A stretch of DNA of 24,717 nucleotides from a virus (lineage: Duplodnaviria > Heunggongvirae > Uroviricota > Caudoviricetes). Where the stretch lies: the IMG/VR virus record IMGVR_UViG_3300011560_000039; one strand, written 5' to 3'. A model generated the notes under the pieces. It had not been told where the DNA came from and ran no database searches. It was given only the letters and a program-made list of their open reading frames with translations. The position numbers were made by a program, and so were the translations under genes. Shown piece by piece: positions 1 through 18,429 of the stretch (positions within the stretch are counted from its first letter, which is position 1; each line of letters opens with the position of its first letter).

Positions 1-1236
1 CTACGATAACCGCGCATTCAACATGGCTATCTGTTCGTCGTTCATGTCATCAATCCACATACCGTAAATTTCATACACCATCTGCGCAGTTTCATGCCCC
101 ATTTGGCTGGCTATAAATGCCGGGTTCGCTCCTGCCGTCAACAGCCAGCAGGCAAAAGTATGCCGCGTATGGTACGGATTACGGCGGCGAATACCAGCAC
201 GTTTTACTGCTGCATTCCACCTTGCCCCCAAACTGCTTACCGAGTAATAAGGTTTTTGTTTTCCGTTACACACCCTGGGCATGAAAACAAAATGCAGTTT
301 TTGCTTTTCGGTTCTGCCGTACTCCCGATGATAAAAGGTGATTTCGCTTTTGCGATGATGCCCGGTCAGTTTGTATTGCTCCTTCAGTGCTTCAAGAGCA
401 GGCTGCAGTAGTGTTACTGTTCGGATCCCGGCATTTGTTTTTGGGGGACCGAACATATCAAGTATCGTCAGGTTTCTTCTGACATTCACTATTCCCTTTT
501 CGAGATCCACATCCTCCCACGCCAGAGCTGCCAGTTCCCCGTGACGAAGTCCTGAGTAAACGGCAAATTTCCACAAGTTCTGGCTCTGTCCTTTTTCACT
601 TTCCATTAATGCATTGAATTCTGTTTTAGATAACGGATCAGGCTTTATTCTGTTTCGCTGTAATTTTTTTACTCCTTCAAATGGTTTGGTTGATATAAAT
701 CCCGACTGATACGCAAAACGCAACAGCGAACAGAGCAGGGCGATATAGTTATCAACTGTGCGCACGGTTCTTCCTTTTTTGTTGGATCTTGGATTATCCA
801 GGTAAAGCGTTTCTCCATGCAGCAGTTCATTCCGGTAGTTTAAGATATCGCTATAACGAATATGTGATATCGGGGTACTTTCACAAATTATTATTCTGAG
901 TGTTTTTAATTGTGATTTCGTTTTCTTCATTGTGTTTGTTGTTAACTCTGTCTCTTTAATTTTTGTCCAGATATCACAAAGCTCTCCGAACGTTTTTATG
1001 ACTCTCGTTGTCACCATTTTTGCCCCAGTGCTGGACTGGGGAAAACGTCTTAAATACTCAAATTCACCGGAGTTTATTTCATGAACTATCAGCGCTCTTA
1101 AATTTCCGGCCTTTTTAATATTACTGTTTGTAATCTCCCAGCCTTTTAATGTTTCCCGACATCGTTTTCCTCGAAACATGAACCAGATGCGAATGTATCT
1201 ACCTCTAATCTCGACACCTGTTGGTAATTTAGACAT
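1..1236 (-). CDS. intR: Tyrosine-type phage integrase (Rac-type), complete 411 aa; stop codon at 1-3
   Basis: Full-length ORF, ATG at 1236; protein recalled as the Rac prophage integrase; position at the prophage left end next to xis. Confidence 0.9.
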   Translation of the reverse strand: MSKLPTGVEIRGRYIRIWFMFRGKRCRETLKGWEITNSNIKKAGNLRALIVHEINSGEFEYLRRFPQSSTGAKMVTTRVIKTFGELCDIWTKIKETELTTNTMKKTKSQLKTLRIIICESTPISHIRYSDILNYRNELLHGETLYLDNPRSNKKGRTVRTVDNYIALLCSLLRFAYQSGFISTKPFEGVKKLQRNRIKPDPLSKTEFNALMESEKGQSQNLWKFAVYSGLRHGELAALAWEDVDLEKGIVNVRRNLTILDMFGPPKTNAGIRTVTLLQPALEALKEQYKLTGHHRKSEITFYHREYGRTEKQKLHFVFMPRVCNGKQKPYYSVSSLGARWNAAVKRAGIRRRNPYHTRHTFACWLLTAGANPAFIASQMGHETAQMVYEIYGMWIDDMNDEQIAMLNARLS

Positions 1237-1237
1237 A

Positions 1238-1453
1238 TCATGAGTCTTTGATAAACTGATTTATCTTTGGATAGTTGTACCAGATAATCCCTCGTTTGCT
1301 GTCTGGCTTACCTAAAGGAGATACTCGTTTGAAGTGGAAGCCCTCCACCCAACAGTTCTGGCGGTATGCTTCAATTTGTCTGGCCCCCAGACCAGTGCGA
1401 AGCATCAGGCCGTATTCAACCATCCACTCTTCATTAAAGATTACTTGTGCCAT
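1238..1453 (-). CDS. xisR: Excisionase-like protein (71 aa from first ATG; track ORF extends to a TTG at 1477)
   Basis: Small ORF immediately upstream of int on the same strand; sequence [15 protein letters not shown]... recalled as YdaQ/XisR; first ATG is at 1453. Confidence 0.75.
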
Positions 1454-1531
1454 CGCATCACCTCTGGCAGGCGCCAATGTTAGACTGAAATTGACGCCCG
1501 ATGTTGATTATTAATAATCAGCTATGAAGTT

Positions 1532-1741
1532 TTAATTTGAATACAATGCAATTCTCGAGGACTGAAGTTTCTCGCAATTAAAATTTATCAGTTTTACTTT
1601 CTGCTCTCTGGAAACGCCTGCTTCTTTTTTACCTGAGAGCATTTTTTCGCATTCTGATTTCGTTAGTTTAGATTTTGAATATCTTGTCCAGTTAGTAGGA
1701 GTGCCACCTTCCTTTTCAATAGTGGCGGTAATTTTATACAT
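1532..1741 (-). CDS. ydaC: Small Rac-type protein YdaC (DUF1187), 69 aa
   Basis: ORF from MYKITATIEKEGG...; overlaps the ralR 3' end by 8 nt; synteny with the Rac early-left operon. Confidence 0.7.
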   Translation of the reverse strand: MYKITATIEKEGGTPTNWTRYSKSKLTKSECEKMLSGKKEAGVSREQKVKLINFNCEKLQSSRIALYSN

Positions 1742-1928
1742 GAACACCTCCATTATTATTTCCAGTGGTTCGTTTATTCCATCTTTCGAGTGCTTCTTTT
1801 TCACTTCCACCATAACCGGTTCGGGATTCGCATCCGTTACACTTCGCTCGGTAATATCCTGAAATGGCTTTCACCGTTACTGATGGACAACCACAAAATG
1901 GACATGGTTTAACATTGTCATATCTCAT
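1734..1928 (-). CDS. ralR: Restriction alleviation protein Lar/RalR, 64 aa
   Basis: MRYDNVKPCPFCGCPSV...CNGCESRTGYGG has the Cys-rich Lar signature; located just downstream of recT as in Rac. Confidence 0.8.
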   Translation of the reverse strand: MRYDNVKPCPFCGCPSVTVKAISGYYRAKCNGCESRTGYGGSEKEALERWNKRTTGNNNGGVHV

Positions 1929-1984
1929 AATTTTTCTCATAAAAAATATTTCAAGTTGGCGGTGCATTACACCGCCAGGCTGAA

Positions 1985-2794
1985 TTATTCCTTTGAATTA
2001 TCGATTACACTGTATTCCCCGGTTAATACAGAGGAATCTGCAGGATCGATTGTCAGTGGTTCCTTTTCATCCATTGATACTGCACGCTGGATCTCAATTG
2101 ATACGGGCAGATATTTGAACAGGCGACGAATAGCCGTTTTCTTTGCCATTTCTTCCCAGTGAGTTACCCACGGCCCGTTATTACCAGCTTTACTCAGGAT
2201 GCGCACCAGCTCAATCTGTTTGCGCGTCATAACTTCAAACTGAGTACCTCCGTCTTTCAGTCTTGCGACAGCATAGACGTGGGTAACCGGGGCATCTTCG
2301 TTTTCTCCCGGGCGGTGTATTAACTTTTCATCAAGGCCAAATTCGAAGCTAAACTCGTCACCTTCACGGACAACACGGGCTGACAGGCTGGCGATTTGAC
2401 CAGAACGGCGAGCCAGATCAATCATGCCGCGATAGCCAATGATTAGCTGAACGTTCTTTTTACCGCTCTTTTCGTTTTTATTACCAAAAGGCAGTAAATA
2501 TGCATGACCGAGGGCGCTACCTGGCTCAAGTCCGAGCTGTGAACACTGTACGATCGCACTGACAAAACTCATAGTGTCACAGTTTCCTAACGCCGGAACT
2601 TTACGAATTTCTGTGGTGGCGATACGGATCATACGTTCAGCCGTCATATGGCGTGGAAGAGCTGCTGCCAGTTGCTCTTTCATTGATGGCTGGTTAATAA
2701 AACTAATCACGTCGCTATTTTTAACTGCTGCTGGTGCACGGTTTCCCTGAGTTTTTTGCAGATCGGCTTTTGCGATTGGTGGTTGCTTAGTCAT
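1985..2794 (-). CDS. recT: Recombinase RecT (single-strand annealing protein), 269 aa
   Basis: [16 protein letters not shown]... recalled as RecT; start ATG at 2794 overlaps the recE stop (2787-2789), consistent with translational coupling. Confidence 0.9.
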
Positions 2795-5387
2795 TTGCAT
2801 ATTCCTTAGCCCAGCGGGGCAGTGATAATGTCTTAATAGCTGGCCATTCATCGGTATTCAGGCAGTCAGACAGGGTTCGCAGATTGCGGTGATATTCCTG
2901 TTGACCTGCCAGTTTTGCTTCTTCGCCCATCATGAAAATTTCAACCGGATAACGTCCGCATTCAATAGTTGTGCTGGCAACCAGAAAAACGAAAGTTGGC
3001 TGCACTCCAAACTGTGCTTCATAACCGTCACTGTAGAATGCATCCTGAACGTGATAGCGGTAGTCGTAATAAGCGGTTTTGAATCGTTGAATATCCGCCG
3101 TAGTTTTCACGTCCATGATCCAGTGAAATTCAGGGATAATTTTGTCCGGACGGCACCGACACAAAATTCCTGTTTCAGGATCTTCCCAGTAAATTGATGA
3201 TTCAGCGTGTCCGGCGCTTTCAACAAGCCATTGCCCCAGCGGCAAAGCCATAACGCTTTGATACATGAGTTCAATTTTCCGGCCTTCTTCCGCAGTGATA
3301 ACCGTTTTTCCTGTGCTTGCGCATTCCATCAGAAACGCTTTCTCTTCTTCTTTTCCGGCGTTTGTACGGCGGTTAAATTCAGGTGCTACGATAAAGCGGT
3401 TACTGAATTCTTCCGGTTCAAGTACCCGGCAGTGGAAAGCAGTTCCTAAATCGAGCGTTTTTGTCTTTGTGGTGTCCACGGGGGCATTTTTACGCCACAA
3501 ATATAGTGCCGGAGTATCAGCAATGTCATCGAGCTGAGACTTACTGATACCGGGACCCGCGTGGTAATTCTCATTCGAAATTCCGTAATAAATACCTGGC
3601 TCTATGTCTTCTACGATTACGGGATCTGCGACTTCGCCAGTTTCATCACTGCAATCGCGATGCGGATCGCTGCCAGCATTCTCATTGTGCGGATGTTCAG
3701 CGCCTTCCATTTCCTCCGGATCATTTTCCTTAGCTTCAACCTGACTCTCTTCATCGAATGTTTCCTGGTATGTTGCGTCGCCCATCACCGCACCACAGTC
3801 AGGGCAGTTATCCCCGCCAGTCTGGCCGCAGGCATTGCAGGCTATTTCCGGTTCCTGTTGCACTACTGGCTCAGGTTGATTCATATCCGGGCTGGTTTTT
3901 TCCGTTTCTGGCTGGTTCTGGTACACACAATCGCGAGTCTGGATCCCCTTTACCCATTTCGGATCGTTCGGGTCGCTAATTCCGTCAACAAATTCACCAC
4001 GTGATGCAGCAAGCAATTTATCGGCATCGACAGGATTTTTTGATGGAATGTTTTTCCGGGCTTCATGGAGTTCTGCCCGCAGTTCCTGATATTTCGCATC
4101 AACAGAATTTACCTGTGACTGAGCATCCAGCGGCTGCGTGTCCTGATGATGTTCAGTTGCGTCCTGTTCCATTGTTTCAGCCTCTCCCTGTTCAACTGCC
4201 GTTGTTCCAGATGGTTGCGGTTTTTCTTCATCATCCTGTTTTCCTTCTTCTGTTACTCGCTGCGGCATCGGGGCAGAGGAGCGACCGCAGGCAATATCCA
4301 CGATTTCCGGATCAGGGTTGGCATGATCGGTTTCAGTCAGTACTTTGTTCAGATATTCAGTGACGTGCGCGGGGATGACCTCGATCCCAATTGGTGCTTC
4401 TTTTACGGACGCAACCACGATGGCGCGGGAATAATCCAGCCCGCCAGGCATGGTGATGAATTTGTCGCGGAAAACAGAAAAGGGCGGTTTATTTTCAGCG
4501 ATAATTTCCTCAATGCGTTTAGCGTGTGCCGGATGAAGGTTATAGATGTCCAGATCCATTGAACGGGCCAGTACGCCAGTGGCTACGTCGCGCGCCAGTG
4601 ACGTCAGATCGTGTACGAAACCTTCGCCGCGATCGGTGAGGTTTCCGCCGCCAGCATTAGCACCGGAAGCCGTGCGAGTGATGTGTGAAACACGATTACC
4701 CTTCATCCACTCTTTTGTCAGCAGTCCTCGATCGGTGTAGTCAGCGTTCAGGTATGCTTCGAAAAAAGCAGTTATCAGTCCCAGGTTTGAATTACCAGGA
4801 TTAGGGAAAACTTTGTCAGTGTCACGAACCAGTTTGTGGAGTTCGCGAATTTCCAGCGGGTCGAGCAGGCTGGTTTTGTGGGAAACAGCCAGGGCAGTAA
4901 CAGCCGGTAGTTCTTCAGCCCGAGCAATGTGTAATGCCTGGAGTCCGTCGCGTGAAACGTGCGTTACCGGTTTTTCGCTGCCGTGTTGAGCAAGCCAACG
5001 AATGGGCAGTTCCTGGCCAGAAATTGGGAGTAGCATATTCTCCTCAATCTCAGTCATGTCTTCGCCGTTGACGTTGGTATTGCCTTGATAGTGAGCGTTG
5101 TCTGGTGCTGCTCCCGGTTTTAGTTCCCATGTCATGGAGTCTTTGCTGAGTTGATAGCGTTCACTCCAGGTAAAATCGATCTCACCTTCAGCGGGCAGGT
5201 CATTAACGACAGGAAAATTCGTGGCAACAGCTTTAAAATAGCTGCTCAGTTTTTTACCTGACTTAACGATCAGGTAGTCCAGAGTGGCACAGGTCGATTC
5301 AAAATCGTTGCTTGCCCACAGGACGACGTCAGGTTCACCGGATGATTTTTTCGCTTTCCGTAACAGGAAGAGTGGTTTTGTGCTCAT
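2787..5387 (-). CDS. recE: Exodeoxyribonuclease VIII (RecE), 866 aa
   Basis: 866-aa ORF with acidic linker regions; recalled as RecE; directly upstream of recT on the same strand. Confidence 0.9.
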
Positions 5388-5458
5388 TGTTTTTTAACCT
5401 CAACTCAGATTAAAATTCGTTTTGTTCAGTGAATGATCTTGCCGGATACACACTGTTC

Positions 5459-5483
5459 ATAGCCTGCGTCATACGCAGGCTAT
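5459..5483. other. Perfect hairpin (11-bp stem ATAGCCTGCGT / ACGCAGGCTAT, 3-nt loop) in the recE-racC intergenic region
   Basis: Inverted repeat read directly; on the + strand it is followed by TTTCTTTC; no U-run on the minus-strand transcript. Confidence 0.5.
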
Positions 5484-5488
5484 TTCTT

Positions 5489-5764
5489 TCAGATTTCACC
5501 TTTTAATTTCATTGCAATTAGAGTTGCCAGAAATTCGGCTTTTTTTTCTGTGGGCAGATTCTTTCCGATATGCACCAGGCACATTTTTTTGACACCTTCA
5601 TCAAGTGTTTTTACGTTGCCTGATGGACCATCGATATCAACCACAGTGAATGGGGTTTCTTTATTTTCTGTTTTAATTACGTAGCCAATGCGCTTTCCTT
5701 CCAGATTCACCTCGTGAACAATGTCATCGGTAGTTACAACAGTGGCTTCATAATTGGTAATCAT
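5489..5764 (-). CDS. racC: RacC protein, 91 aa
   Basis: MITNYEATVVTTDDIVHEVNLEGKR...; ATG at 5764 preceded by an AAGGAG Shine-Dalgarno; Rac synteny. Confidence 0.75.
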   Translation of the reverse strand: MITNYEATVVTTDDIVHEVNLEGKRIGYVIKTENKETPFTVVDIDGPSGNVKTLDEGVKKMCLVHIGKNLPTEKKAEFLATLIAMKLKGEI

Positions 5765-5838
5765 GTTTTTCTCCTTAATTAAGGTTGAGCGAATACCTGC
5801 CATTTCTGGCATAAATTCAGTTTCGAATAGTCAATTAA

Positions 5839-6009
5839 TTAAAGTTCATGTGCCATCTGGTCTTTTTCGGCACAAGCTTCACTGCAATATTTTCTCGGTT
5901 CGTCTTTTGATAAAATCCCGTGCATGAAGTGAAGCATTCTTTCAATAGCTTTGCTTTCTTCAACGTCTTTTTTGCAAAGGTGGTAAGCACATTTTATTTT
6001 CTTAGTCAT
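5839..6009 (-). CDS. ydaE: Small Cys-rich protein YdaE, 56 aa
   Basis: Hand-translated [56 protein letters not shown]; its ATG overlaps the kilR stop (ATGA); not in the ORF track because it is under 60 aa. Confidence 0.7.
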   Translation of the reverse strand: MTKKIKCAYHLCKKDVEESKAIERMLHFMHGILSKDEPRKYCSEACAEKDQMAHEL

Positions 6010-6230
6010 CACCATGACTCCGCCTTTACAGGTAAACCATCACGACCGAGGAAGACTTTAATCATGCGGTCAGTAATGCATGTTTTTGTGGTCAGGTTAC
6101 GAATATATAGTTTTCGCTTTTTAATATTGTTTGCCGAGGCAATATATGTCCGGCCTTCATGAAGAACATAATCGCCAGGAGTCACACACTGACGTGGTAT
6201 TTCATCAGTTCCGAAGTGATGTGCAATCAT
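6009..6230 (-). CDS. kilR: Kil-type host-killing / cell-division inhibitor protein KilR, 73 aa
   Basis: [32 protein letters not shown]...; ATG at 6230 has a GGAGA Shine-Dalgarno; the upstream ATG at 6242 lacks one. Confidence 0.75.
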
Positions 6231-6671
6231 AATTATCTCCATTTTTACAAATGAACTTTGTTGATGCGGTGCCTGGTGCCTCCAGGTGACTGCAACCAGT
6301 TAACAATTACAGTCGGCTTTCCCACCCAAACCAATAAGGACTAACATGACTTTTAACTGTGCCACGTGCGCTTAGCCGCATTCACCGCATCACAAAATTC
6401 ACTTTAAAAAGGGCGGACATCAGCCGAACTTCAAGAAAAAAACTGATGCCGCCAGGACTACACACAGCAATGTCGTTATTTACAACCGGAGGCGCACTCC
6501 CACCATTTAAATTTAACAGACAAGACCGACTCTTTATGGATATCGGAAATGCGCCTTCGTGTTGTGCCCGGTTTTATTTCACCACCTCCGGGCTTCGGTG
6601 GTCTCGGCTATACCCCTACAGCGAGAGCTTGTGTTAACATTTCAATACCCTTACAGTTGAGAGTTATTGAT

Positions 6672-7160
6672 ATGTTGGATGTATTTACTCCATTGTTGAA
6701 ATTTTTTGCTAACGAGCCACTCGAAAGACTTATGTATACGATTATCATTTTTGGTCTCACTCTCTGGCTGATACCGAAAGAGTTTACTGTCGCATTCAAT
6801 GCTTATACTGAAATACCTTGGCTCTTTCAGATTATCGTTTTTGCCTTTTCTTTCGTGGTCGCCATTTCCTTCTCAAGATTGCGAGCGCATATTCAAAAGC
6901 ATTATTCATTACTACCAGAGCAACGAGTATTGCTTCGTTTATCTGAGAAAGAAATCGCTGTATTTAAAGATTTCCTTAAAACAGGAAATCTTATTATCAC
7001 TTCTCCTTGCCGTAACCCGGTTATGAAAAAATTAGAACGGAAGGGCATCATTCAACATCAGAGTGATAGCGCAAACTGTTCTTATTATCTCGTCACCGAA
7101 AAATACTCCCATTTTATGAAGTTATTCTGGAACAGCAGGAGTAAACGTTTTAATCGTTAG
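6672..7160 (+). CDS. sieB: Superinfection exclusion protein SieB, 162 aa
   Basis: MLDVFTPLLKFFANEPLERLMYTIIIFGLTLWLIP... with hydrophobic membrane segments; the 203-aa track ORF extends upstream with no ATG or RBS support. Confidence 0.8.
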   Translation: MLDVFTPLLKFFANEPLERLMYTIIIFGLTLWLIPKEFTVAFNAYTEIPWLFQIIVFAFSFVVAISFSRLRAHIQKHYSLLPEQRVLLRLSEKEIAVFKDFLKTGNLIITSPCRNPVMKKLERKGIIQHQSDSANCSYYLVTEKYSHFMKLFWNSRSKRFNR

Positions 7161-7312
7161 CTTACTGTGTGCTTCTCCAACCATCGGCGCGCACCAGTTT
7201 CGGTTTTAAATGTTTTGCTTTTGGTATACGTCATGGCAGTGAACGTTCCATCCTGGTTGGGGAACACGCCGCACACCAGGGATTCGTTGTTGCCGAGGTC
7301 GATTTTTTGCAT
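7157..7312 (-). CDS. ydaF: Small Rac protein YdaF (DUF1391), 51 aa
   Basis: Hand-translated MQKIDLGNNESLVCGVFPNQDGTFTAMTYTKSKTFKTETGARRWLEKHTVS; convergent with sieB with overlapping stops. Confidence 0.6.
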   Translation of the reverse strand: MQKIDLGNNESLVCGVFPNQDGTFTAMTYTKSKTFKTETGARRWLEKHTVS

Positions 7313-7322
7313 TTTGCGAATC

Positions 7323-7457
7323 TCACATCTTGTTGCTACGTATAGCGACTTCTGCCTGCCAGAGATCCCAGTCGTTGCTGCGTAAAGCCTGCACAGCCTG
7401 GTTGTAAGTGATACCGCAACAATCCATCAAATACTGAACTACTTCGTAATGCACCAT
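7323..7457 (-). CDS. ydaG: Small Rac protein YdaG, 44 aa
   Basis: Hand-translated MVHYEVVQYLMDCCGITYNQAVQALRSNDWDLWQAEVAIRSNKM; first gene of the leftward operon downstream of the OL-like operator block. Confidence 0.6.
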   Translation of the reverse strand: MVHYEVVQYLMDCCGITYNQAVQALRSNDWDLWQAEVAIRSNKM

Positions 7458-7635
7458 CTTATCTCTCCCCTTAACGCCGGGTGGCGGAACTAACTGCTGC
7501 ACTGCAAAATTTGAATCCCGCCGTCATGTTCATACGCCTCGGGCTGGCTACTTAACCCCTTACCACTGCCTGGTAACTCGAAGTATTGCCCGGCGTTCTG
7601 TGGGGCGGGGTGGGTGGTATGCTGGAACTATAGGT

Positions 7636-7692
7636 AATGCCTAATTGATTGTCAATAGGCTATGCCTAATGTTTTGAGCGTAACCTAATAGG
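7636..7692. promoter_or_regulatory. OL-like operator block: repeated GCCTAAT/ATTAGGC half-sites including a 24-bp copy (7648-7671) of the OR-side element in inverted orientation
   Basis: attgtcaataggctatgcctaatg is the reverse complement of cattaggca(c)agcctattgacaat at 8294-8317 with one mismatch; positioned to control the leftward ydaG-to-int operon. Confidence 0.6.
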
Positions 7693-7765
7693 TGATGGCG
7701 ACAGCAGAAAGTGATGGGGGGGTTAAATAACGGAATCCAGGAGTTTTCCGTCAGACCATATAAGT

Positions 7766-8242
7766 TTAAGTTCCAGTTTTTGTGATGTTCTGGCTTTTCC
7801 GTTCAGATTCAAGAGCTTTCAGATACTTACCCACTTTCATTTCCATCGCTGCTATGTAGGCGCGAACATCGTGGTCAACCCAATCTGGTTCTGTAGCATT
7901 TCCAGATAACAGGAAAGCTACAATCGCTCTTATTTCATCAGAGGCTGCTTGATAAAGGTTGTTTATATCTAAAAGTTCACTTTTTGTATCTGAATTGGTG
8001 GGGGTTGGTATGGGGTATTCGTTAAGCCCCCAATGCTCTGGACCAACAACATCAGAAAAGAAACGCCATAATTCTGGAAGTTTATCTTTACTTATAGAGC
8101 CTTTCTTAATCCAGTCATAAATTGATGGTGGTTGGACTTTAAAGTGGCGTGCGACCTCCGCCTTTGATTTGACGGATCCCGATGCGATTTTTTTGTTAAT
8201 GGCCTGCTCTATCGCTCGGCCTAAGTTTTTACCACTAAGCAT
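7766..8242 (-). CDS. racR: Prophage repressor RacR (cI-like), 158 aa
   Basis: N-terminal HTH (KAEVARHFKVQPPSIYDWIKKG); divergent from ydaS; flanked by operator repeats. Confidence 0.9.
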   Translation of the reverse strand: MLSGKNLGRAIEQAINKKIASGSVKSKAEVARHFKVQPPSIYDWIKKGSISKDKLPELWRFFSDVVGPEHWGLNEYPIPTPTNSDTKSELLDINNLYQAASDEIRAIVAFLLSGNATEPDWVDHDVRAYIAAMEMKVGKYLKALESERKSQNITKTGT

Positions 8243-8267
8243 TGCTTAATATTCTCCTATGCGCATT

Positions 8268-8338
8268 ACATTAGGCAATCCCTACCCTTACTGCATTAGG
8301 CACAGCCTATTGACAATTGCGTTAGGCGTCGCCTAATA
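8268..8338. promoter_or_regulatory. OR-like divergent promoter/operator region between racR and ydaS, with a perfect palindrome TTAGGCG-T-CGCCTAA (8322-8336) and ATTAGGC repeats
   Basis: Palindrome and repeats read directly; lies between divergent repressor and cro-like genes. Confidence 0.65.
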
Positions 8339-8365
8339 TTTCTGTGTGTTTTTGGAGTTCATTCG

Positions 8366-8662
8366 ATGAAAAAAGAGAACTATTCATTCAAGCAAGCTTG
8401 TGCTGTTGTCGGTGGGCAATCAGCAATGGCTAGGCTTTTAGGTGTATCACCTCCAAGCGTAAATCAATGGATCAAAGGGGTACGTCAATTGCCTGCCGAG
8501 AGATGTCCAGCAATTGAACGTGCAACAAGAGGTGAGGTTCTGTGCGAAGAACTTCGTCCTGATATTGACTGGTCATATTTACGACGTTCGGCATGTTGTT
8601 CGCAGAATATGTCAGTGAAGCAACTAAATGACAGTAACAAATCCTCATTTGATCATACCTGA
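8366..8662 (+). CDS. ydaS: Cro-like HTH regulator YdaS, 98 aa
   Basis: HTH QSAMARLLGVSPPSVNQWIKG; first gene of the rightward operon; GGAG Shine-Dalgarno. Confidence 0.85.
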   Translation: MKKENYSFKQACAVVGGQSAMARLLGVSPPSVNQWIKGVRQLPAERCPAIERATRGEVLCEELRPDIDWSYLRRSACCSQNMSVKQLNDSNKSSFDHT

Positions 8663-8684
8663 AACATCAAGAGGCAAATGATTC

Positions 8685-9107
8685 ATGAAAATCAAGCATG
8701 AGCACATCGAATCAGTGTTGTTTGCCCTAGCAGCCGAAAAAGGGCAGGCATGGGTAGCCAATGCAATTACTGAAGAATATCTGCGCCAGGGGGGCGGCGA
8801 ATTGCCCCTGGTTCCAGGCAAGGACTGGAACAATCAGCAGAATATCTATCACCGTTGGTTGAAAGGTGAAACGAAAACGCAAAGAGAAAAAATTCAGAAG
8901 CTGATCCCAGCAATTCTGGCAATCCTTCCGCGCGAGCTGCGTCACCGACTCTGCATCTTCGATACCCTGGAACGCCGTGCATTACTGGCGGCGCAGGAAG
9001 CGTTAAGTACGGCAATTGATGCGCATGATGATGCAGTCCAAGCCGTTTACCGGAAAGCGCATTTCAGCGGCGGCGGTTCTTCCGACGATTCTGTCATTGT
9101 TCATTAA
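8685..9107 (+). CDS. ydaT: YdaT (cII-position protein; reported toxic when derepressed), 140 aa
   Basis: Sequence and synteny with the Rac ydaS-ydaT pair. Confidence 0.85.
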   Translation: MKIKHEHIESVLFALAAEKGQAWVANAITEEYLRQGGGELPLVPGKDWNNQQNIYHRWLKGETKTQREKIQKLIPAILAILPRELRHRLCIFDTLERRALLAAQEALSTAIDAHDDAVQAVYRKAHFSGGGSSDDSVIVH

Positions 9108-18213: not shown

Positions 18214-18429
18214 ATGAAATCCATGGACAAAATTTCAACAGGCATTGCCTACGGCACCTCCGCAGGCAGTGCTGGCTACTGGTTTTTACAGTTGCTCGAT
18301 AGAGTAACTCCGTCACAGTGGGCTGCAATCGGTGTGCTGGGTAGTCTGGTATTTGGCCTACTGACGTACCTGACAAACCTTTATTTCAAGATTAAAGAAG
18401 ATAAGCGCAAGGCTGCGAGAGGTGAATAA
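18214..18429 (+). CDS. Phage-21-type pinholin S with dual start MKSM (antiholin/holin), 71 aa
   Basis: [26 protein letters not shown]...[19 protein letters not shown]; GGAGGTGAG Shine-Dalgarno; the 90-aa track ORF extends upstream. Confidence 0.85.

Follow-up and report, generated by a model that had tools for sequence, protein, structure and literature searches.

A predicted leftward promoter with paired RacR operator motifs downstream of racR suggests a lambda-type OL/PL module in the Rac prophage

Introduction

How does one repressor silence early genes that lie on both sides of its own gene? This question is raised by the immunity region of the Rac prophage, from which RecET recombineering, the KilR division inhibitor and the RalR toxin derive, and whose repressor gene, racR, is essential in E. 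coli K-12.

RacR was shown to bind its motif to the right of racR by EMSA and ChIP-qPCR (PMC5700373) and by DNase I footprinting (PMC9638921), and the footprints, EMSA and ChIP-qPCR reported so far all concern the racR-ydaS intergenic region only (PMC5700373, PMC9638921). Loss of RacR is also felt to the left. Depletion of RacR by C protein was found to raise ydaC, kilR and ralA more than 70-fold and ydaF, ydaG, ydaE and racC about 40-fold (PMC6765115), and xisR and intR rose about 100-fold, this only with RacR under its natural level (PMC11014345). Overall, derepression of the leftward genes, including recET, amounts to 40-100-fold in transcriptomes and qRT-PCR (PMC6765115, PMC11014345, bioRxiv 10.64898/2026.09.06.749655). 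Recent work has RacR acting only at racR-ydaS, which leaves the roughly 100-fold rise of xisR and intR, and excision, unaccounted for. Here, a module downstream of racR is described that may supply the missing connection. In the searchable literature, no RacR sites and no promoter downstream of racR were found described, an earlier mention in older papers being possible, and ydaG figures in the Rac literature only within lists of induced genes.

Locus and gene layout

The window, meaning the whole stretch of DNA analyzed (24,717 nucleotides), was compared with E. coli K-12 derivatives over bases 7300-8700, a region comprising racR, ydaS, ydaT, ydaF and the small phage gene ydaG, and was found to be 99.9% identical. 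In the annotated K-12 record, this match is located in the Rac prophage. The repressor gene racR (158 aa) occupies 7766-8242 on the minus strand, and ydaS, the first gene of the rightward operon, occupies 8366-8662 on the plus strand and encodes a Cro-like regulator (Pfam YdaS_toxin and P22_Cro). On the minus strand, ydaG (7323-7457) is the first gene after the promoter predicted below and ydaF (7157-7312) is the next, the two together spanning 7157-7457. The gene order of the K-12 record is intR, xisR, rcbA, ralR, recT, recE, racC, ydaE, kilR, sieB, ydaF, ydaG and racR on the left, with sieB on the opposite strand within the proposed leftward operon, and ydaS, ydaT and ydaU to the right of racR. 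Apart from a weak helix-turn-helix match, no sequence similarity of RacR to CI was detected, and no solved structure was matched by RacR at the sequence level.

An inverted repeat and operator motifs around racR

An earlier note on this DNA had described a 24-bp inverted repeat around racR with one mismatch, additional GCCTAA/TTAGGC half-sites on both sides and a perfect palindrome at 8322-8336, and these observations were all confirmed. The segment 7648-7671 (ATTGTCAATAGGCTATGCCTAATG) and the reverse complement of 8294-8317 differ at exactly one position, and the extended arms reach 35 nt with 83% complementarity. When both racR flanks were shuffled 200 times with dinucleotides preserved, the best inverted repeat, one mismatch being allowed, had a mean length of 9.6 nt and never exceeded 13 nt. 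The palindrome at 8322-8336 reads TTAGGCGTCGCCTAA, and the window (24.7 kb) holds nine TTAGGC/GCCTAA hexamers, seven of them between 7639 and 8336.

These half-sites belong to a known motif. The RacR operator, (T/A)TAGGC-n3-GCCTA(T/A), was deduced from footprinting with DNase I between racR and ydaS (PMC9638921). Its core, TAGGC-n3-GCCTA, occurs in the window three times exactly and six times with at most one mismatch, whereas shuffled sequence gives 0.01 and 0.44-0.53 on average. Of these six sites, five lie to either side of racR (starts 7631, 7656, 8272, 8297 and 8323), and the sixth operator-like site, at 18239, is inside chance expectation. Over the 10 specified positions, the two left sites, here called OL1 and OL2, match the RacR operator with one and zero mismatches. 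Together, the inverted repeat and the operator matches are far outside chance. An operator abutting a TTGACA -35 box is present once on each side of racR; thus, the 24-bp inverted repeat consists of an operator plus a -35 box.

The racR-ydaS side

Four operators were located on the right side of racR. The site over the racR start codon, TAAGCATTGCTTA (8236-8248, two mismatches), corresponds to the published O3 (PMC9638921) and is kept at position -6 in all homologous loci. The racR promoter-region operator, TAGGCAATCCCTA (8272-8284, one mismatch), is inside the racR-ydaS intergenic region, for which DNase I protection by RacR was reported (PMC9638921). The OR2-equivalent, TAGGCACAGCCTA (8297-8309; PMC9638921), is an exact match that abuts the -35 box of PydaST and forms part of the right arm of the 24-bp inverted repeat. 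The OR1-equivalent, TAGGCGTCGCCTA (8323-8335), also exact, is located in the PydaST spacer and shares 2 nt with the -10 hexamer. The number of intergenic inverted repeats was given as three in the 2022 paper (PMC9638921) and as four in later papers, with O3 among the four.

In a sigma-70 scan, two promoters stood out, namely PydaST and a mirror-image left promoter, PL. PydaST, the PR equivalent, consists of TTGACA, an 18-nt spacer and TAATAT (8310-8339, plus strand). It was mapped by experiment and found to be very strong (PMC9638921, PMC11879457), and operator O1 was placed over this ydaST promoter (PMC9638921).

A predicted promoter and operator pair downstream of racR

The predicted PL, TTGACA-17-TATAGT, runs from 7655 to 7627 on the minus strand and points toward ydaG; it agrees with the sigma-70 consensus at 11 of 12 positions in a simple scan and is the top sigma-70 match within bases 1-7800. 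Its -35 hexamer is located at 7650-7655 and its -10 hexamer at 7627-7632. The promoter-proximal site OL1, TAGGTAATGCCTA (7631-7643, one mismatch), occupies the spacer between the two hexamers and overlaps the -10 hexamer by 2 nt, mirroring OR1 at PydaST. OL2, TAGGCTATGCCTA (7656-7668, exact), abuts the -35 box, and OL2 and the -35 box together form the left arm of the 24-bp inverted repeat. OL1 and OL2 are 25 bp apart center to center, and the OR1 and OR2 equivalents 26 bp. The left pair lies 98-135 bp past the racR stop codon. The published right-side RacR operators are identical to the left sites in motif and in position relative to a TTGACA promoter, and the left repeat arm is a near-copy of the operator adjoining the PydaST -35 box. 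However, the published operators are all upstream of racR, whereas the left pair is downstream and faces the opposite way from the PydaST side.

A weak candidate for a third left site, TGAGCGTAACCTA (7675-7687), carries three mismatches and overlaps a palindrome, ACCTAATAGGT (7683-7693), the two having a joint extent of 7675-7693. The third-site position has two mismatches in phage vB_EcoS-683R6; its conservation was looked for in genera other than Escherichia and was not found, and the palindrome ACCTAATAGGT is likewise conserved within Escherichia only. The earlier note had likened the geometry to lambda OL/OR, and this likeness held for the operator pairs on outward promoters on both sides of racR, but the left side has two good sites and not three.

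Between racR and PL, the sole terminator-like feature is a weak hairpin directly after the racR stop codon (7728-7753, minus strand; 8-bp stem followed by UUUAA). Its fold is not better than that of shuffled sequence (z = -0.28), and the terminator scan listed no minus-strand terminator at this position. In the absence of a convincing terminator between racR and PL, RacR bound at the left sites might stop read-through from racR.

Conservation of the left module

A protein-seeded search with one genome per species, which constitutes an unbiased sample, yielded ten RacR-homologue loci. An operator pair 25 bp apart was found downstream of the repressor gene in nine of them, the loci being from E. 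coli, E. ruysiae, Mixta, Morganella, Proteus, Achromobacter and Pigmentiphaga, with RacR homologues of 57-99% protein identity or of 73-74% over the DNA-binding domain only. At the homologous locus of Klebsiella sp. R390, no operator pair was detected within 4 kb, and the right promoter was found to be decayed as well, with its -35 box lost. The left pair is also present in an O157:H7 prophage with 86% DNA identity across the immunity region, where the module has changed only in the n3 spacer, in the linker between the sites and at the OL1 position that was degenerate already.

When the left regions of nine taxa were aligned, the only invariant columns were TAGGC, GCCTATTGAC, TAGG, CCTA and the last T of the -10 hexamer, while the flanks of the module could not be aligned. 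In terms of the elements described above, the OL2 half-sites are invariant with a variable n3, as are TTGAC of the -35 hexamer, the TAGG and CCTA cores of OL1 and the final T of the -10 hexamer. Conservation of the left copy in related prophages is one of the points on which the earlier note had staked its reading; the comparison revealed that the operator pair and promoter are kept across genera in unalignable surroundings.

The left module was also found in all four phage records examined, which likewise form an unbiased sample seeded by protein. In the complete genome of Klebsiella phage KpF5, it is located 1.4 kb downstream of the repressor gene, past an inserted DUF450 gene. Two Pseudomonas phages share with RacR only its DNA-binding domain (42-53% identity) and carry TTAGGCATTA(C/G)CTA, TTTACA and TTAGGCATT... 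in this order, 2-3 kb downstream of the repressor start. A scan of IMG/VR with a composite-module pattern returned at least 120 contigs, 107 of which encode a RacR homologue. Among contigs with adequate flanks, 99 of 100 have at least two operators upstream and a pair spaced 24-26 bp downstream, a sample that is biased because the scan required one module. Outside both clusters, 17 operator-like sites were counted in 1.03 Mb of viral contigs versus about 30 by chance. The left module is oriented outward from the repressor gene in all homologous loci and viral contigs. Between the repressor stop codon and the left pair lie 65 bp to 2.3 kb, and the distance between left and right operators ranges from about 0.6 to 3 kb among relatives; because the latter varies, no fixed geometry is conserved.

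The segment following the predicted promoter

Transcription from PL is predicted to start near 7620 on the minus strand and would produce a 5' leader of about 160 nt (7458-7620) ahead of ydaG and ydaF. Bases 7466-7619, directly past the predicted PL, show 80-90% identity to many of about 2,400 E. coli records among the matches listed. At the loci examined, this segment lies downstream of at least four repressor types, namely RacR, a second helix-turn-helix protein, a repressor of the LexA family, and a regulator followed by a RelB/ParE pair. It is also present in phages Evi and Tritos and in an Actinobacillus phage, and is mostly unannotated.

An Rfam scan of 7100-8800 at permissive thresholds returned nothing relevant, and comparison of the leader with the HK022 cI-nun intergenic region, as a test for a put-type antiterminator RNA, gave no sequence similarity. 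A consensus fold of eight copies had a covariation term of -0.08, essentially none, because they differ too little from one another. The leader contains a short ORF that the Actinobacillus phage copy does not preserve. Any role of the segment in antitermination or as a leader is a guess.

Comparison with lambda and CP-933P

The lambda features and spacings used here are established knowledge, and are also described in PMC8630535. Lambda and Rac are alike in having the repressor gene between two divergent early promoters that fire outward (the left one predicted in Rac), tandem palindromic operators of one consensus over the -35 and -10 elements of both promoters, and adjacent sites about 24-26 bp apart center to center. 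In both, a leaderless or near-leaderless repressor gene diverges from a Cro-like gene, the repressor is octameric, and the leftward operon contains kil, recombination, xis and int genes. However, the Rac operators are 13-15 bp long with a 5-n3-5 core, whereas those of lambda are 17 bp; Rac has two good left and four right sites instead of three and three; and the left-right operator distance is about 0.65 kb in Rac and 2.3 kb in lambda. Moreover, Rac contains no recognizable N gene or nutL site, unlike lambda, and has a different conserved leader after PL.

A bipartite layout is expected for a lambdoid prophage and was already demonstrated in CP-933P of E. coli O157:H7, a Rac-like lambdoid prophage with the repressor PaaR2, in which YdaS and YdaT are the analogues of Cro and CII (PMC8630535). 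As in Rac, a second promoter is located downstream of the repressor operon, with the hexamers and operator repeats of PR, and PaaR2 is an octamer (PMC8630535). Reporter fusions confirmed this PL with its three OL sites beyond the paaR2 operon, and in such assays PaaR2 and YdaS each repressed it about 100-fold (PMC8630535). The CP-933P operators differ from those of Rac, being 18-bp palindromes of the GTTTAGTAA type. In addition, CP-933P has a toxin-antitoxin pair between the repressor gene and PL, and its left promoter was established by experiment, whereas the Rac left module is predicted. A PaaR2-like protein could be aligned with RacR over 53 residues only, at 34% identity, and the primer sequences for PL933P had no match among the comparison loci. 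Repressors of the PaaR2 and RacR types are thus barely similar, and CP-933P is an analogue of Rac but a different system.

How might RacR act on both promoters?

We consider it highly probable that racR lies between two mirror-image promoter-operator modules, both controlled by RacR, and that the left one is the Rac equivalent of lambda PL/OL. The lambda-type OL/PL reading of the sequence is well supported in silico; from it, we infer that RacR binds at OL1 and OL2 and that PL is active. Each module consists of an operator, a TTGACA -35 box and a second operator running into the -10 hexamer. RacR dimers recognize TAGGC-n3-GCCTA, and with both sites filled they would cover a stretch from the -35 box through the spacer to the edge of the -10 hexamer and so would block RNA polymerase.

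Of the leftward early genes, PL would drive ydaG and ydaF, and probably also kilR, ydaE, racC, recE, recT, ralR, xisR and intR. No strong minus-strand terminator was found between PL and intR, and the transcript could therefore run on to intR. Since both promoters would be occluded by RacR, its loss would open both directly, and this opening would explain why the leftward genes are derepressed and why Rac excises. The earlier note had assigned both operons to one repressor. This assignment gained from the overlap of the left copy with a promoter directed toward ydaG and from the derepression of the leftward genes without RacR, but the single ydaG-to-int transcript that it implied is only plausible. 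The derepression after RacR loss could be partly indirect, via YdaS or YdaT, and xisR and intR may have promoters of their own.

An indirect route could also be the whole explanation. RacR would then act only at racR-ydaS, YdaS or YdaT would activate the left genes, and the left palindromes would be bound by YdaS or unbound. It is known that YdaS expression promotes Rac excision and that YdaT is a transcription factor with targets beyond its own locus (PMC11014345, PMC11879457). However, the left sites match the footprinted RacR motif with zero and one mismatches and share the right-side positions relative to the -35 and -10 elements, and the YdaT box (ATGATT-n6-AATCAA) is absent from 7620-7700. 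A lone TTGATT half at the left site was considered as a YdaT box and rejected, having no AATCAA partner. Operator sharing between a Cro-like protein and a repressor is expected, and is compatible with direct repression by RacR. Activation through YdaS or YdaT may contribute, but it leaves exact RacR motifs over a conserved promoter unexplained, and as the sole cause it is unlikely. Far more improbable is the view that duplication or recombination between promoter regions left the left copy behind as an inert remnant, or that this copy is only a hairpin terminator of racR. Rac is a decayed prophage, and a consensus scan flags 7656-7668 as a plus-strand terminator-like hairpin. Against a remnant, it is exactly the half-sites and the -35 box that stay invariant between Escherichia, Pigmentiphaga and the Pseudomonas phages, amid flanks that have fully diverged. 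The terminator reading was rejected: the stem is only 5 bp, the flagged T-run is on the wrong strand, and the minus strand, which is the racR strand, has UUGACAAUCAAUU after the hairpin and no U-tract.

Granted direct repression by RacR on both sides, do the two modules act together? RacR was found to be an octamer by size-exclusion chromatography (PMC11014345), and we infer OL-OR looping from this published octamer alone. An octamer occupying both left sites together with the promoter-proximal pair on the right would bridge the two pairs, which are 641-692 bp apart center to center, and repression via such a loop of about 0.65 kb is a tentative proposal, to which we give somewhat less than an even chance. 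Were it true, the published model, in which four dimers sit side by side to the right of racR, would need revision, and the remaining two right-side sites would serve racR autoregulation. A serious competitor, which likewise falls a little below even odds, is that the left module is repressed by RacR independently of the right, with the octamer on the four right-side sites and no OL-OR loop. The four right-side operators (8236, 8272, 8297 and 8323) fit four dimers, and the authors who described the octamer attributed it to four adjacent right-side dimers acting in this independent manner, no loop being needed (PMC11014345); the variable left-right distance among relatives also suits such a model. 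On the other hand, the closest analogues, lambda CI and PaaR2, are also octamers with operators at two locations (PMC8630535), and the pairing of sites 25-26 bp apart on both sides is a 2+2 arrangement that an octamer could bridge. The present data fit both models, and nothing in them distinguishes the two.

What does the left module mean for Rac and its relatives?

A RacR-controlled leftward promoter 98-140 bp downstream of racR would provide a direct route to the rise of xisR and intR and to excision. The left module bears on the control of recET and kilR, offers an alternative reading of the RacR octamer, and is a place in which to seek sbcA mutations; if the proposed arrangement is true, the classical sbcA point mutations that activate recET are candidate left-operator or left-promoter mutations. 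In that case, a two-module design with loops of 0.6-3 kb would also be conserved in a repressor family unrelated to CI, one that spans Enterobacteriaceae to Burkholderiales as well as Pseudomonas phages. The conserved module of operator, -35 box and operator would make both early promoters predictable in any RacR-type phage, and would give this CI-unrelated repressor family a two-promoter signature.

A conserved segment downstream of the predicted left promoter

Directly 3' of the predicted leftward promoter PL (7655->7627, minus strand) lies a conserved non-coding segment of about 155 nt (window 7466-7619, minus strand). Copies were found at six comparison loci, L138 (2501-2662), L139 (2501-2654), L140 (2501-2658), L142 (2501-2655), L143 (1501-1663) and L144 (1501-1654), and matches of 80-90% identity occur in many E. 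coli genomes. The repressor genes upstream of segments of this type belong to at least four immunity types. Annotation of such segments is mostly missing, and in several deposited phage records the label "head-DNA stabilization protein D" has been placed either on the ydaF/DUF1391 gene or on the conserved leader, as at 6931-7083 of phage vB_EcoS-683R6 (locus L016; also hits H41 and H42), which looks like an annotation error. No Rfam match was obtained for the segment, nor any similarity to HK022 put, and covariation was absent among the compared copies because these are too similar to one another. The segment may act as a leader or in antitermination.

The interval that separates the racR stop codon from the predicted left promoter (7669-7765) lacks a convincing intrinsic terminator. 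The sole terminator-like feature here is a weak hairpin (7728-7753), and the predicted RNA fold of 7669-7775 was not better than those of shuffled sequences. Transcripts of racR may be kept from running on into ydaG by other means, such as Rho, or RacR occupying the predicted left sites. The start of ydaG itself is ambiguous (7323-7502): the longest open reading frame, from a GTG at 7502, encodes 59 residues, and the RefSeq start, an ATG at 7457, gives a product of 44 residues. The 44-residue YdaG has a Pfam match to a UBA-like domain (UBA_4, E = 3e-5, above cut-off).

Additional palindromes and repeats

A perfect palindrome, ACCTAATAGGT, is located at 7683-7693, 15 nt past the left operator OL2, with the operator half-sites arranged in reverse, tail-to-tail. 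It overlaps an operator candidate with three mismatches (7675-7687). The palindrome is kept in E. coli, E. ruysiae and an O157 relative, with variable adjoining bases, and is not present in the other genera compared. An isolated operator-like site with one mismatch, CAGGCATTGCCTA, occurs in the tail-fibre region (18239-18251), within chance expectation (~0.5 per window). Finally, the ydaG/ydaF junction (7318-7336) and the interior of ydaS (8522-8540) form a 19-nt inverted repeat of 89% complementarity, so that GCAACAAGA(G/T)GTGAG(G/A)TTC is found on both coding strands; a rough estimate, made by hand rather than computed, is that such a repeat would arise by chance in <1% of 1.4-kb regions.

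RacR homologues in other genomes

A 5.2-kb contig (L004, JARKOR010000130.1) labelled as a metagenome-assembled genome of Candidatus Nanosynbacter carries a racR gene of 99% identity together with all of the E. coli operators; this contig is almost certainly wrongly binned E. coli DNA. In Klebsiella sp. R390 (L008), the right promoter of the RacR homologue no longer has a -35 box, a left operator pair was not found within 4 kb, and the gene next after the homologue is similar to the DUF450 insert of Klebsiella phage KpF5. The immunity region here (3900-4800) has probably decayed.

Achromobacter, Pigmentiphaga and Pseudomonas phages (L010, L011, L145 and L146) carry the N-terminal DNA-binding domain of RacR joined to differing C-terminal parts, one of these fusions being annotated as a 283-residue CI repressor. 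Despite the different C-terminal parts, all four loci retain the motif of the operators as well as both modules, each an operator pair with an outward promoter, one on either side of the repressor gene. Thus, the DNA-binding domain of RacR travels with its operators.
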